Positions 48,452 to 63,180 of a DNA stretch of 64,000 bases are shown piece after piece. Under the pieces are notes generated by a model that ran no database searches, had not been told where the DNA came from, and saw only the letters and a list, made by a program, of their open reading frames with translations. The position numbers were made by a program, and so were the translations under genes. The stretch lies in the IMG/VR virus record IMGVR_UViG_3300031669_006556. One strand, given 5' to 3'. Position 1 is the stretch's first letter, and each line of letters starts with the position of its first letter. The DNA is from a virus.

Positions 48452-48901
48452 TTATAATAAATTTAAGTGTCCTGTTATTTTATCAATTTTATCTGGATCA
48501 TCTGGACCAATAGCACAACAAGTTATAGTAACTTCTCCTCCAAATTCAGTTAATCCTTTATCTTCAATAAGTGCACAAGGAATACTCATTGCTTTAGCTT
48601 TTCTATATACTTCTACACATTCACTAAGAGATTCAGCTCCAACTACAATTTTCTTAAATGAAGAATTTATCCATTGAAACATTGGTTCATCAAAATGTAA
48701 TTTAATTTCGGCAGTCATAATATGCTCACTATTTTTATCTACTACCCATTCTCTTTTTGTATGAGGTCCTAAAAATGCTTCTAGTAATACAGCTAAAGAA
48801 GCATGAGCACCTTGGGCAATCATCTTTCCCTTCCTCATATTGAGGTCTTTACGCATCACTATTACTTGTTTAGGTTCACTCATAATACTTAATATAACCA
48901 A
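48452..48901 (-). CDS. peptidyl-tRNA hydrolase, PTH2 family
   Basis: RKDLNMRKGKMIAQGAHAS ... AIGPDDPDKIDKITGHLNLL matches PTH2 signature regions. Confidence 0.7.
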   Translation of the reverse strand: MVILSIMSEPKQVIVMRKDLNMRKGKMIAQGAHASLAVLLEAFLGPHTKREWVVDKNSEHIMTAEIKLHFDEPMFQWINSSFKKIVVGAESLSECVEVYRKAKAMSIPCALIEDKGLTEFGGEVTITCCAIGPDDPDKIDKITGHLNLL

Positions 48902-48939
48902 AATTATTGGGATAAAAAAATTCTAGAATATTAAATTTC
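48889..48939 (-). promoter_or_regulatory. Conserved intergenic promoter-like motif
   Basis: TTAATATAACCAAAATTATTGGGATAAAAAAATTCTAGAATATTAAATTTC. Confidence 0.55.
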
Positions 48940-49592
48940 TGTTAAGAAAGCATCATACCTTTAGGTTTCTCTTCATAGAGAATATATGTGACTACATCTC
49001 TATTTTCAATACCAGTTCCATTTACAGAAATTATATTGATCCCTTCATTTTCTTTTAACCATGATTGAATATCACCATCAACACCCGATAAATTGGCACT
49101 ATAAATTGCTTTTATTTTTCTCATAATCTATCTCCTTCATTAAAAATAGTAGCCCATTCAGGATCTACTAAAAGTTCTTTGTATAAACCTGATTCTTTTT
49201 TGACATAAAAATGATATTCATACGGATTTTTTAGAGTATCAACTTCTATTTTTAAAATAGTTGAGTTAACATTTCTATTTAAATTATCATATTTTACTTG
49301 ATCTTCCGAAGTACAAGCGGCAATTAATAAACTTGAAAAGAATACGAATATTCCTAGAGTATATCCGAAGTTTTTAAAAAATTTTTTCATATCTTTGCTT
49401 CTTTAGTTATTTCAGGGTATTCCATTTTTGCTACTCTTCCAGGATAAGTTATGTTATCTACTTCTAAATCTACTACAATAGCTCCACAATCTTGACACCA
49501 CTTGACTACTTCCCACGTTCCATCCCAATCATGTTGAGAATTATAAATAGGTTTAAGATTGTGTTCTCCTGTTTTTATACAATCTGGTATTT

Positions 49593-50543
49593 TCATTTTA
49601 ATATTGTTTGAATTTTAAACACACATGATAACAAAGTTATAAGTGGATCAATAACCATAGTTCTTTGAGCCTGATGTTCAGCCACTGCAATTATAATAAG
49701 AGGAACTTTATCTATTTTTGATGGAGCATTACTTTTAATATATTCCACAAGGTCTACACCTAATGCATTAAGAGTATCATCTATCCTTGATGAATATTCA
49801 CTAACAATAAGTTTGTAGTTTTCATAAGGTTTTTCTGGTCCAGCTAAACAAAGTTTAAATAAATCAACATAATCAAAATTGATATTAAAGTTCTTTGCAT
49901 TTAATTCTTTTATACCTTGAAGATAAAATGATTGAATTTTATTCATAAGACTTCTCATATCTGGAAAATCATTACGAATAAACTTATCTAGTATTTCATC
50001 AGTATAAGTAATTTTGGCTGCGTTTAAGATCGCCCCAACTCTTTTCTTATACTCTTCAATAATATAAGTCTCCTCTTCATTATTTAATGAGTCATAAGAA
50101 ATACAATTAAATCGAGATTGTACAGGATCTGGAACCTTTTGAATATAATTACAAGATGCTATAAACCTAGCAACATTTGCATACTTCTCCATTACAGCTC
50201 TTAAAGCTTTAAAGAATTCTTCTGTTGCACCATCAACCTCATCCAATATAACACATTTAAGTTTCTCTCTTCCTCCTTCCAATGAAATTGAAGAACAGAA
50301 TTTTCCAATTCTTTCTCTAATTACATCAATACCACGTTCAGATGATGCATTAATGTACAATGTAGTATGTGGTTCTGATAAAATAAATAATGTTGAAGTT
50401 TTTCCTGTACCCGCAGATCCATACAATAAAAGATTTTGGACTAATCCCTTATTTAATTCATTTTTTATACGTGGTGGGGCTATAAGTTGTCCCAAGTTTT
50501 TGGGACGGAATTTCTCCGTAAATAGCTGATCTATTGTACTCAT
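49593..50543 (-). CDS. sliding-clamp loader subunit (T4 gp44 / RFC-small-like AAA+)
   Basis: FTEKFRPKNLGQLI, Walker A GSAGTGKTS, Walker B ILDEVD, sensor SRF. Confidence 0.7.
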   Translation of the reverse strand: MSTIDQLFTEKFRPKNLGQLIAPPRIKNELNKGLVQNLLLYGSAGTGKTSTLFILSEPHTTLYINASSERGIDVIRERIGKFCSSISLEGGREKLKCVILDEVDGATEEFFKALRAVMEKYANVARFIASCNYIQKVPDPVQSRFNCISYDSLNNEEETYIIEEYKKRVGAILNAAKITYTDEILDKFIRNDFPDMRSLMNKIQSFYLQGIKELNAKNFNINFDYVDLFKLCLAGPEKPYENYKLIVSEYSSRIDDTLNALGVDLVEYIKSNAPSKIDKVPLIIIAVAEHQAQRTMVIDPLITLLSCVFKIQTILK

Positions 50544-50585
50544 TTATTCTTTTTGTTTATATGTATATATGTACCAATGGTTTTC

Positions 50586-51005
50586 TTATCCAAATAAGAA
50601 AATTAATTGATCACCATCAGCAAAAATCTTTCTTCCTTTGTAAATACCACCGAACATTTTCTTAACTGCATTAGTAACAGAAGATCCGGCTCCTTTTAAT
50701 GTGTAAACAATTGCTGGACCAGTCCAAATAACATCTTTAGCCTTTTCATCTGACCCATGGAACATTGTAAATCTTGAGGACACATCAATTTTTTTATTTT
50801 CAAACTTATCACTCATAACCTTTTGGACATATTGTGCCATAAGCTGTTCAATTCCTGGCCAGTTATCTTTCCACCAATTAAAATTATTATCTAGTGTATT
50901 GATAGCAGACTCAACGTATGGAAATTGATCTTCGGTGCTATTTTGAAAAATAATTCCATTTACTTCTCTAGCATCTTCAGTTATAAGTTTGACTTTAATT
51001 TTCAT
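50586..51005 (-). CDS. hypothetical protein (possible clamp-loader accessory)
   Basis: 139-aa ORF directly downstream of the clamp loader gene. Confidence 0.35.
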   Translation of the reverse strand: MKIKVKLITEDAREVNGIIFQNSTEDQFPYVESAINTLDNNFNWWKDNWPGIEQLMAQYVQKVMSDKFENKKIDVSSRFTMFHGSDEKAKDVIWTGPAIVYTLKGAGSSVTNAVKKMFGGIYKGRKIFADGDQLIFLFG

Positions 51006-51495
51006 CGATATGTTTTATTTTATTTATTCATCTAATAACTTCATAGGATTCCCGATTCTCCACCTATTGCATTCTATTCCTTGGCCCATTATATCCAAGT
51101 GTTATAGGGTTGCTACCTGTTGAATGCAGCAATTTATTGATCGTATCTGCACTTAGTTACTAGCATTCAATTTCGATGATGGTGCCATCATCTAATTGAA
51201 CAGTGGCAATATTATCTTTCCACTCTTTTATTATTCCTTCAAATTTTTCACCTTTACGGTTTGGCCACCAAACTCTTTCACCTTTAAGACACATGTAGTC
51301 TATTTGTCTAAGATATTTTTTCATATTATATATTTGTTAAATACCATAAGGCCATTTCATGATCTTTTTCTGGTATATTTGAAAAATCATATACACCTTC
51401 TAAATGAATCTTTCTTTTACCTAAAGATACCACTTTTCTAACGGTAACTTTAGAAGAACCTTGAACGGTAAATTTATTTGTATTATCAAATGTTA

Positions 51496-61555: not shown

Positions 61556-61889
61556 AACACAACAAAAAATCCTACTATTCCAACTGCCCAGGGCAGTGCT
61601 TCTAAAATTTCGATAAACATTTTATTGTGTGTGAACTATAAGTTTGTAAATAGGTTCAGTTAAATTTCTATATTCGCAATGAAGAACTTCGCCTTCACTA
61701 TTTGTGTATGCTTTGAAAAAATCAAATTTAACTCTTTCATCTTCAATTCCTACTACAAAAATAGTAGGTGTGAATAATGAGCCAAGAACAAGTTTGTCAA
61801 CATGCACAAGAAAAGTGTTCGAGTCTTCCAACCGGACTACATCATCACCATTTCCGTATGTTATTGTTTGTGGCTTCATTATATTAATT

Positions 61890-62276
61890 TTATGCTTTTT
61901 CTTTGTAGCGTTCTACATCTACTGAAATAAATGCATTTGAATCTTTATCAATTTTCGAAGAGTGTGTGCCTGTGCGGTTAAAGGAAATATGATATTTGGT
62001 TCCCCAAAGATATCCTTCATCTTCTTCCCAGAAAATAATTACATCAACAGATACTCCACCTTCCCAAGCTTCCCTATTACGAACAAAGGGCTTTTCACCT
62101 GGAAATTCTTTATCCATTTTTGTTAATTGGGATATGGTATCAAACACATCAGTCACTTCCTGAGGAGGATTTTTTGTGTTGTAAGGATAACCATAATCAG
62201 CTGCATCATTAAAGATGCGCTTTTGTTTTTTGGCAATGTTCTCAAAAATATGAGCTTCTTCTTTAAATACTCCCAT
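61890..62276 (-). CDS. hypothetical protein
   Basis: 128-aa ORF. Confidence 0.4.
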   Translation of the reverse strand: MGVFKEEAHIFENIAKKQKRIFNDAADYGYPYNTKNPPQEVTDVFDTISQLTKMDKEFPGEKPFVRNREAWEGGVSVDVIIFWEEDEGYLWGTKYHISFNRTGTHSSKIDKDSNAFISVDVERYKEKA

Positions 62277-62306
62277 AATTAAATAGTTATTTTCTTTATT
62301 TATACT

Positions 62307-62370
62307 TAAATATAACCAAAAGAATTGGGATAAAAAAATATTGGGGCATTTATTTTAAGAAAATGTTAAG
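62307..62370 (-). promoter_or_regulatory. Conserved intergenic promoter-like motif
   Basis: TTAAATATAACCAAAAGAATTGGGATAAAAAAATATTGGGGCATTTATTTTAAG. Confidence 0.55.
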
Positions 62371-62667
62371 GGAGCTGGGGTAGGCCGCTTACGCATGCAT
62401 AAACTCCCTTAACATTTTATCTACTTTGATATACTTTTTCTACAAGGAAAACATTTTTAAATGATATCCATTGCCTATGCGCACCGGAGATATTATAGAA
62501 AATAATTTTTTCCTGGTCTCCAACAATTTTTTCAACTTTTACGATGTCATTTACATAATTTTTGTAAACTCCACCAAGCTCAATTTCTTCAAGAGGAATC
62601 CTGTTTGTAGTTTCTTGAGTTTCTTTTTTCTTAGCCATATTAAAAATTTTTAATTTGTAACAAATAG

Positions 62668-62720
62668 TAATATAACAAAAAAAACCGGGATAAAAAAATC
62701 TCCGGTTAATTATTTTTAGT
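62668..62720 (-). promoter_or_regulatory. Conserved intergenic promoter-like motif
   Basis: GTAATATAACAAAAAAAACCGGGATAAAAAAATCTCCGGTTAATTATTTTTAG. Confidence 0.55.
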
Positions 62721-63180
62721 TTTTTTCACTACTATCTCCATTGTATTTCATCAGGTGCCCTTTAGAGGTCTTAAAAATTGTGTACCATTTATCCTTAAAC
62801 TCAAAAGTTATTTTGTCCTCAGTGAACTTAGAGACCTCTACTTCTCCACAATGGATTAACTTGACAGTTCCTTTTCCATATCCATCTTTTATTTCACCTT
62901 CAAAGTTCCTGTAACTCCAAGGATGGTCATCAACCAAAATGGCCATGCGAACTTTCCCTTTTTGAGTAGGAAATTCGTGTTTAGGTATAACAAAGGACCT
63001 AAGTATTCGGTCATCAGAAATGTCCCTGGGTTCACCAGAGTGTTCCGATCTTTTTTCCAAATATGTATCTAATTCTCCAACATAACACTCAAAGCGGACA
63101 TCCCAATGAAGGCCTGCCCGATCTGCAGTATGTTCCTGGATAACCAGGGTACGATACATTTTCTTATCCCTTATTTGCAT
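62716..63180 (-). CDS. stand-alone LigD-type 3'-phosphoesterase (PE) domain protein
   Basis: LVIQEHTADRAGLHWDVRFE (compare QxHxAxRLHYDFRLE), VDDHPWSYRNFEGEI, GYGKGTVKLIHCGEV; 154 aa. Confidence 0.6.
   Translation of the reverse strand: MQIRDKKMYRTLVIQEHTADRAGLHWDVRFECYVGELDTYLEKRSEHSGEPRDISDDRILRSFVIPKHEFPTQKGKVRMAILVDDHPWSYRNFEGEIKDGYGKGTVKLIHCGEVEVSKFTEDKITFEFKDKWYTIFKTSKGHLMKYNGDSSEKN

Follow-up and report, generated by a model that had tools for sequence, protein, structure and literature searches.

The question raised by the 64,000-nucleotide (nt) stretch of viral DNA analysed here (IMG/VR record IMGVR_UViG_3300031669_006556; the window in the following) is whether a group of genes spread over 15-20 kb, among a clamp loader, a flap endonuclease (FEN), a NUDIX hydrolase and many unknown open reading frames (ORFs), constitutes a kit for the repair of RNA ends. 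An earlier note on this DNA had described such a toolkit at positions 48452-63180 and had named six ORFs: a Thg1-like polymerase, a LigD-type 3'-phosphoesterase (PE), the peptidyl-tRNA hydrolase Pth2, a Pol-beta nucleotidyltransferase and two HD phosphohydrolases. Together with a tRNA array and the Ro60 and major vault (MVP) proteins, these had been interpreted as a counter-measure against host defences that cleave tRNA or rRNA. The six ORFs were checked against Pfam with its curated cut-offs; in addition, PHROG, NCBIfam and PDB were searched. The profile searches placed all six on the minus strand and in the families that had been named (Table 1). The best explanation, which we consider moderately probable, is that the kit genes, located in a co-directional auxiliary region of a Lak-like huge phage, would sustain translation against tRNA cleavage by the host. 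It is based on the presence of the genes, their families, their intact catalytic residues and the gene order in two close relatives; from these we infer the activities of the enzymes, their substrates and their cooperation.

The G+C content is about 31% across the window, and coding is almost wholly confined to the minus strand. The best phage relatives of the clamp loader are its homologues in the Prevotella Lak megaphages (48% identity), and the nucleotidyltransferase is about 45% identical to that of LR745206 and LR756502, two uncultured phages of 635-642 kb. Based on these relatives, a protein sorted by the type IX secretion system (T9SS), a TonB receptor, the tRNAs and other cargo genes, the sequence identifies the window as part of the genome of a Lak-like huge phage that infects Bacteroidota. 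The relatives came from protein-level searches; a megablast search with 8 kb for the nearest sequenced phage by DNA gave no match. In several metagenome samples, contigs of up to 70.6 kb carry genes identical to those of the window. The sequence on record amounts to about 64-70 kb, with about 1.1 kb known past the right end of the window; the whole genome is probably much larger.

Enzymes predicted to act on RNA ends

The Thg1-like protein (TLP) matched the family PF04446 well above the cut-off (E 1.1e-30; 106.6 bits, cut-off 29.2), as had been claimed, and phrog_4717 with an E-value of 1.5e-85. Its closest solved relative is the TLP of Bacillus thuringiensis (BtTLP, pdb code 4KGK), which was matched over residues 3-219 with E 7.6e-52, whereas the matches to eukaryotic and archaeal Thg1 were weaker, at 1e-8 to 1e-12 (1.3e-8 to 2.8e-12 for the human/yeast type). 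By its sequence, the product belongs to the repair-type TLP branch and not to the eukaryotic, G-1-adding Thg1 branch. Residues E14, R30, D32, D77 and E78 align with E12, R28, D30, D75 and E76 of BtTLP (PMC3701042); among these, the three catalytic carboxylates D32, D77 and E78, which correspond to D29, D76 and E77 of hTHG1, are intact. TLPs mend 5'-truncated tRNAs by templated 3'-5' addition (PMC3061083, PMC4820378; also PMC3701042). Given the BtTLP match with the same catalytic residues, templated repair of tRNA 5' ends would therefore be expected of the phage protein.

The nucleotidyltransferase gene is located 558 nt downstream of the TLP gene, with two small overlapping ORFs in between. 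Its N-terminal half is covered by the RlaP family PF10127 (E 9.5e-23; 81.6 bits, cut-off 23), phrog_388 was matched over the full length (E 3.6e-52), and the Pol-beta motif G22-S23...D34-x-D36 is present. The top phage relatives are the homologues in LR756502 and LR745206 mentioned above, followed by those of Lak (36%) and Tenacibaculum phage PTm1; among solved structures, none was matched by sequence. The earlier proposal of a Pol-beta nucleotidyltransferase was therefore correct with respect to the family, but not the suggestion that it could be CCA-adding: the ORF belongs to RlaP, and the Pfam search gave no match to a CCA-adding family. Characterised RlaPs extend damaged RNA 3'-OH ends by one or two nucleotides (PMC12776372). 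An RNA ligase next to the RlaP gene, the association to which the family owes its name, was found neither in the window nor on identical contigs nor within 20 kb in LR756502 and LR745206. The order RlaP-NUDIX recurs in the close relative L014 and in LR756502; the NUDIX hydrolase, whose role is uncertain, weakly matched NUDIX models of the ADP-ribose and NMNAT type.

Pth2 was likewise recovered as claimed, with scores above the cut-offs of PF01981 (E 2.5e-29; 102.2 bits, cut-off 23) and TIGR00283 (104.4 bits, cut-off 82) and slightly under that of NF003314 (111.2, cut-off 126). The family motifs GKMxAQxxHA and D-G-TE...GP are kept. Only the start codon had to be corrected: it is probably the ATG at 48883 rather than the TTG at 48901, because the gene is called at 143 amino acids (aa) on other contigs.

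For the PE, the match to LigD_N (PF13298) had an E-value of 1.1e-12 and 48.4 bits (cut-off 31.1). It is confined to residues 57-129, owing to an insertion of about 25 residues after the HxDxR strand, which is also present in the closest homologues. The score for TIGR02777 (49.5) was under the equivalog cut-off of 144. Among solved structures, the phage protein is most closely related to 3P4H (E 1.4e-13) and 3P43, both stand-alone PEs from archaea. The essential active site of these enzymes comprises two histidines and one aspartate, which are metal ligands, plus an arginine, a histidine and a tyrosine. The earlier note had made its assignment dependent on the conserved His/Asp metal ligands; an inspection of the alignment showed that all six catalytic residues are kept: H17, H25, D27, R29, H86 and Y90 correspond to His36, His42, Asp44, Arg46, His78 and Tyr82 of MbaPE, whose importance has been demonstrated by mutagenesis (PMC3082917). 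Moreover, Q15, E16, H17, H25, D27, R29 and H86 are invariant across 17 homologues. An AlphaFold (AF2) model with a pLDDT of 91.6 adopts the LigD-PE beta-barrel fold, and the only Foldseek matches of this model at E<=0.001 were the LigD-PE structures 3P4H, 3P43, 3N9B and 5DMP. Profile match, fold and archaeal relatives agree with the LigD-PE assignment.

The PE had no PHROG match and no tblastn match among 50,697 deposited phage records. Metagenomes contributed 51 homologues, every one of them stand-alone and 116-168 aa in length. Among 185,579 representative cellular genomes, identity over the match was 30-39% for the nearest relatives and 48% for one short fragment; they came from Actinomycetes, archaea and Alphaproteobacteria, and none from Bacteroidota. 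According to these sequence comparisons, there is a clade of stand-alone LigD-type 3'-phosphoesterases that is specific to viruses.

Both phosphohydrolases of the earlier note belong to the HD family. HD1, which lies outside the span given there, matched PF01966 (E 6.2e-7; 30.1 bits, cut-off 22) and phrog_28876, annotated as metal-dependent phosphohydrolase (E 1e-47). HD2 scored barely under the Pfam cut-off of 22 (21.9 bits, E 2.2e-4), matched PHROG 19425, a phosphohydrolase (E 3.2e-38), and contains a visible H...HD motif. Their membership in an RNA-repair kit, in contrast, found no support: PDB, NCBIfam and PHROG searches returned generic HD matches and no subfamily with RNA-end activity. 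Of the named matches, all of them weak, the closest to HD1 were Cas3 HD, MobH and HDIG, and the closest to HD2 the GlnD HD domain and BH2835. As no such subfamily was matched, HD1 and HD2 should not be counted in the kit.

Table 1. Features of the window and of its immediate surroundings
Feature	Position	Strand	Basis or remark
TLP, bacterial-type Thg1-like protein, 252 aa	54524..55282	-	Pfam Thg1 PF04446, phrog_4717
RlaP-family Pol-beta nucleotidyltransferase, 365 aa	52869..53966	-	Pfam RlaP, phrog_388, Pol-beta motif
Pth2-type peptidyl-tRNA hydrolase	48452..48883	-	PTH2 PF01981, TIGR00283, conserved motifs
Stand-alone LigD-type PE, 154 aa	62716..63180	-	Pfam LigD_N PF13298, archaeal PE structures, AF2 model
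AAA_33 P-loop "predicted kinase", 128 aa	~64043-64429 (L001:368-754), just past the window		0.9 kb upstream of PE
NUDIX hydrolase	51496..52044	-	Pfam NUDIX E 7.5e-11; downstream of RlaP
Clamp-loader ATPase (interleaved replication gene, not kit)	49593..50543	-	phrog_168 E 4.9e-52
FEN / 5'-3' exonuclease (interleaved replication gene, not kit)	47061..48263	-	5_3_exonuc_N E 4.8e-13, phrog_107
HD1, HD-domain protein	43611..44231	-	Pfam HD, phrog_28876
HD2, HD-domain protein	58113..58775	-	phrog_19425; Pfam HD marginal
Protein with C-terminal OmpR-type winged helix	58756..59454	-	Pfam Trans_reg_C E 2.1e-12
Third HD protein	11793-12296	-	Weak SpoT hydrolase-domain likeness, E 4e-6
Ro60/TROVE protein	21488-23191	-	Family search
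MVP-like protein (MVP shoulder, vault repeat)	30771-33224	-	Family search
Suppressor tRNA, anticodon CUA	26482-26555	-	
GOLLD RNA	34385-34868	-	RF02032, 162 bits (gathering score 150)
Match resembling bacterial signal-recognition-particle RNA	36958-37026	-	Sub-threshold, 36.4 bits (threshold 40); inside tRNA region
Near-complete NAD+ salvage (Preiss-Handler)	3915-14204	-	NadR-like NMNAT + kinase, Macro, NAPRTase, PncA-like isochorismatase, NAD synthase (NadE)
SPFH/flotillin gene, then putative NfeD-type membrane partner	40752-42907	-	Partner by sequence likeness, no family match
Envelope-type genes	5773-7734, 17705-21140, 28772-30688	-	TonB-dependent receptor, GT2 glycosyltransferase, HEAT-repeat, YaiO beta-barrel, T9SS-tailed cadherin-like

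Gene order, the RNA ligase and a possible repair route

The order of the genes is conserved in only two close relatives. In L136, whose PE is 77% identical, the succession AAA_33 kinase, PE, winged-helix gene, HD2, TLP, RlaP is kept; in L014, whose TLP is 74% identical, it is TLP, RlaP, NUDIX, clamp loader, Pth2, FEN. A shared function is supported by co-occurrence and by the literature: TLP, RlaP and an RNA ligase are found together in every Lak record, and RlaP tracks RNA ligases across jumbo phages (PMC7824862). An RNA ligase lies 2.7 kb downstream of the TLP gene in Lak-A2 and 4.2 kb from the TLP gene in XacN1, and these nearby ligases tie phage TLPs to RNA repair.

For the window itself, the earlier statement that it contains no RNA ligase (RtcB or Rnl) was confirmed. 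Neither Pfam searches of all ORFs of at least 130 aa nor the precomputed Pfam annotation of identical contigs gave an RNA-ligase family, and six-frame searches of the window with RtcB, RtcA, two Rnl types and DNA ligase gave no match. The same holds for tblastn and hidden Markov model searches of the window and related loci with the ligases of XacN1 (Rnl) and Lak (Rnl), a PF09414 ligase, DNA ligase, RtcB and RtcA, and for the approximately 1.1 kb on record beyond the window. A scan for the K-x-D-G motif yielded chance matches only. A metagenome scan with an alignment of the Lak and XacN1 ligases detected 80 loci, mostly of gut and rumen Lak phages, and none from samples holding the window phage. 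The absence had been called notable in itself; we do not share this view: the genome is probably far larger than the roughly 64-70 kb on record, so that the absence is uninformative. As a homologue of the XacN1 ligase is found in 15 of 15 Lak records, in Lak-A2 near the TLP gene, a ligase encoded elsewhere in the genome is the default expectation.

From the characterised relatives, a route can be proposed. Host nucleases would cut tRNAs during infection, and Pth2 would free tRNA from the peptidyl-tRNA shed by stalled ribosomes. A kinase, possibly the AAA_33 protein encoded just past the window, would convert 5'-OH to 5'-phosphate ends; 3'-phosphate or 3'-ribonucleoside ends would be turned into ligatable ones, the step from 3'-phosphate to 3'-OH possibly being carried out by the PE. 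Lost 3' nucleotides would be restored by RlaP through the addition of one or two nucleotides to the damaged 3'-OH end, and 5'-truncated acceptor stems would be refilled by TLP with the 3' strand as template. Finally, the break would be sealed by a ligase encoded elsewhere in the unassembled genome, or by that of the host. About 29 phage tRNAs, Ro60 and the resynthesis of NAD+ could serve as a back-up.

Several observations weigh against this explanation. The kit genes do not form a conserved operon. In Lak-A2, the RlaP gene is about 94 kb away from the TLP gene; in LR756502, RlaP is accompanied by NUDIX, a TonB receptor and a NadR-like gene, and neither TLP nor Pth2 occurs within 20 kb. On 10 further distinct viral contigs, TLP has no other kit gene within 10 kb, the exception being one lineage with Ro60 at a distance of approximately 2-3 kb. 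No ligase could be located for the window phage in any of the searches listed above. The assignment of the AAA_33 protein as a polynucleotide kinase is weak: it matched the polynucleotide-kinase family phrog_505 with 5.8e-8, the kinase domains of CthPnkp/Pnkp1 only with E 0.14-0.5, and its own family consists of about 3,900 "predicted kinases". Finally, the PE is elsewhere located in DNA-replication modules, and it is absent from L014, although both flanking genes are kept there.

DNA ends, unrelated genes or tRNA maturation

The last two points lead to the most serious rival, to which we assign a little less than an even chance: the PE, and perhaps the small kinase, would heal DNA 3'-phosphate or 3'-ribonucleotide ends during replication, recombination or the repair of host-inflicted nicks, and only TLP, RlaP and Pth2 would be directed to RNA. 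Every characterised PE is a DNA 3'-end healing enzyme, acting on ribonucleotide-terminated ends (PMC3082917). In two other phage lineages, PE genes with 58-59% identity are found between PolB and NUDIX, UvsX/RecA, DnaB and Mre11-like genes; the window region itself contains the clamp loader and FEN, and L014 dispenses with the PE yet keeps TLP, RlaP and Pth2. The locus L035 can be read in both directions, as its PE is near an ATP-dependent DNA ligase and also near an RNA_ligase-family gene (PF09414). Chemically, RNA ends are plausible substrates: CkoPE is described as favouring single-stranded substrates and requiring ribonucleotide ends (PMC3258152). Furthermore, within the lineage of the window phage, the genes for the kinase, TLP and RlaP accompany that for the PE. 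Taken together, the genomic context weighs against a purely RNA-directed role, and we regard an RNA role and a DNA role of the PE as about equally likely. A 213-216-aa gene adjoining the PE in L030 and L032 was considered as a conserved partner and rejected, as it has no homologue in the window; RlaP, too, was found near no other PE.

Alternatively, the genes might be functionally unrelated accessory genes that share a hyper-variable region, the toolkit being imposed by annotation. Their interleaving with unrelated genes, the fast turnover of the small ORFs in between and the dispersal in Lak and LR756502 are in agreement with this notion, as is TLP in Bacillus phage BSP38 and Staphylococcus phage PMBT8, where it is surrounded by hypothetical genes only. 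We hold it to be unlikely, since the constant company of TLP, RlaP and RNA ligase in the Lak records, the proximity of TLP and ligase in two unrelated phages and the coupling of RlaP to RNA ligases among jumbo phages speak for a functional connection.

A third possibility is a role of TLP and RlaP in the maturation of the unusual tRNAs encoded by the phage itself, rather than in damage repair, with TLP correcting or completing their 5' ends and RlaP or a host CCA enzyme their 3' ends. The window contains 17 tRNAs, and a second array of 12 follows just past its left end (L007 4278-7359). A survey of the 3' ends (positions 36077-38825 and 76-159) showed that 16 of the 17 encode only N73-C74, followed by A or T; the full CCA is found only at 38341-38416. 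Such N73-C74-only ends also occur in the L016 phage (301-5176) and in the second array on L007. Six tRNAs of the window have a G1.U72 pair, and several are aberrant. In the stretches 37561-37875, 38040-38191 and 38530-38650, such features include three tRNAs with "Leu" anticodons, whose variable arms are short and which are packed with 4-nt spacers, and three low-scoring tRNA-like elements, two of them without a recognisable acceptor stem. In L016, the TLP is 65% identical to that of the window, and 5 kb upstream of it lies an 85-nt tRNA-His(GTG) (4017-4101). This tRNA, which lacks an encoded G-1 and has an A1.C72 mismatch besides a long variable arm, is a possible natural TLP substrate. We nevertheless judge this third explanation to be distinctly unlikely, as none of the window tRNAs has a true mismatch at positions 1-3 (a need for 5' editing was rejected for this reason), the RNase and CCA-adding enzymes of the host are normally sufficient, a tRNA array lies within 10 kb of TLP at just one of 11 distinct viral TLP loci and a single tRNA at two more, and characterised RlaP favours damaged RNAs (PMC12776372).

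Two variants concern the way in which the PE could take part in repair. The 3'-OH product of RlaP is incompatible with RtcB, and it has been proposed that two nucleotides are added and the terminal one is then hydrolysed (PMC12776372). The PE suggests itself for the second step because removal of the terminal nucleoside is the hallmark reaction of LigD-PE; CkoPE halts mainly at the 3'-phosphate product (PMC3082917). RlaP would add two nucleotides and the PE would remove the terminal nucleoside, leaving a 3'-phosphate end that is extended by a net one nucleotide and ready for RtcB. We consider this partnership very improbable. In a related reading, tRNA acceptor ends may be repaired without a ligase, the kinase and TLP rebuilding the 5' side and the PE, with RlaP or a CCA enzyme, the 3' side.

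Neighbouring genes and known systems

The tRNA array, Ro60/TROVE and MVP of the earlier note are all present according to family searches. The GOLLD RNA is located in an ORF-poor stretch of 2.4 kb adjoining the tRNA array and contains a nested tRNA-like element (34726-34795). With respect to the suppressor tRNA listed in Table 1, TAG is recoded in Lak relatives and occurs in frame in the ligase gene of Lak-A2; the ORFs of the window read normally under code 11. A dCMP deaminase and a DenV-like glycosylase are encoded near the NAD+ salvage module. The HD2 gene overlaps the winged-helix gene upstream of it by 20 nt and is translationally coupled to it; the pairing recurs in L014 and L136, which suggests a two-gene module. 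Upstream of the PE, a DUF7248 gene accompanies the AAA_33 kinase; both genes recur in L136, and L014 likewise has the kinase. Contigs with identical proteins run 0.8-1.1 kb past the right end of the window and then stop, those from several independent samples all ending within about 300 nt of each other (approximately 64796-65114). In L136, a TnsA-like/NUMOD3 homing endonuclease is found at the matching place. The shared stop may mark the end of the genome or else a spot that is variable or repeated.

That phages repair tRNAs cleaved by the host is well established as a counter-defence; the gene set adds an example from the little-studied Lak-like phages of environmental Bacteroidota. If the PE acts on RNA, it would represent a new class of end-healing enzyme for RNA repair and could explain how RlaP products become substrates of RtcB. 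In the case of DNA, it would represent a previously unrecognised phage activity of DNA-end processing.

A comparison with characterised enzymes reveals similarities and differences. The phage TLP has the same carboxylates and nucleotide-binding residues as BtTLP; it differs in being phage-encoded, in a 15-residue insertion at residues 119-136 and in a divergent C-terminal tail. The stand-alone archaeal enzymes CkoPE (3P4H) and MbaPE (3P43) are the best sequence and fold matches of the PE, have the same six residues and are likewise not fused to a ligase or polymerase. In contrast to them, the phage PE is virus-borne, possesses the insertion of about 25 residues and shows, in the structural alignment, an identity of 34% to 3P4H and 30% to 3P43. 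With the bacterial RtcB-RlaP-RtcA operons, for example of Pseudomonas (PMC12776372), the window shares the RlaP family and its Pol-beta motif, whereas its RlaP adjoins TLP and a NUDIX gene instead of a ligase or cyclase.

The response of phage T4 to the anticodon nuclease PrrC by means of Pnkp and Rnl1/Rnl2 offers a parallel in the succession of a 5'-kinase (possibly AAA_33), a 3'-phosphatase (possibly the PE) and ligation; T4, too, has an RlaP-family gene, NrdC.11 (PMC12776372). In the window phage, however, the candidates for kinase and phosphatase are separate small proteins with other folds, the kinase match is weak and no ligase was found.

The closest counterpart is the RNA-repair and counter-defence repertoire of jumbo phages, which comprises tRNAs, RtcB/Rnl, RlaP, a CCA enzyme, Thg1, PTH2, ROT/TROVE and NAD+ salvage (Iyer et al. 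2021, PMC7824862; see also Burroughs & Aravind 2016). The window phage has tRNA arrays, RlaP, a Thg1-family protein, PTH2, ROT/TROVE (Ro60) and NAD+ salvage in common with it, and no RtcB or Rnl in the 64-70 kb on record. The idea of a counter-measure against tRNA- or rRNA-cleaving defences thus matches the published view with respect to TLP, RlaP, Pth2, the tRNAs and Ro60; it does not extend to the HD proteins, and neither the RNA role of the PE nor joint action of genes that are interleaved with clamp loader and FEN and dispersed in distant relatives can be claimed with it. Correctly annotated, the gene set is a further example of a strategy already described for jumbo phages. Its candidate for 3'-end healing is a LigD-type PE, whereas the phosphoesterases given for the repertoire are of the 2H, HAD (Pnkp) or calcineurin type, and the term LigD has 0 occurrences in Iyer et al. 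2021 (PMC7824862); the PE is in this respect a new ingredient, of modest novelty.

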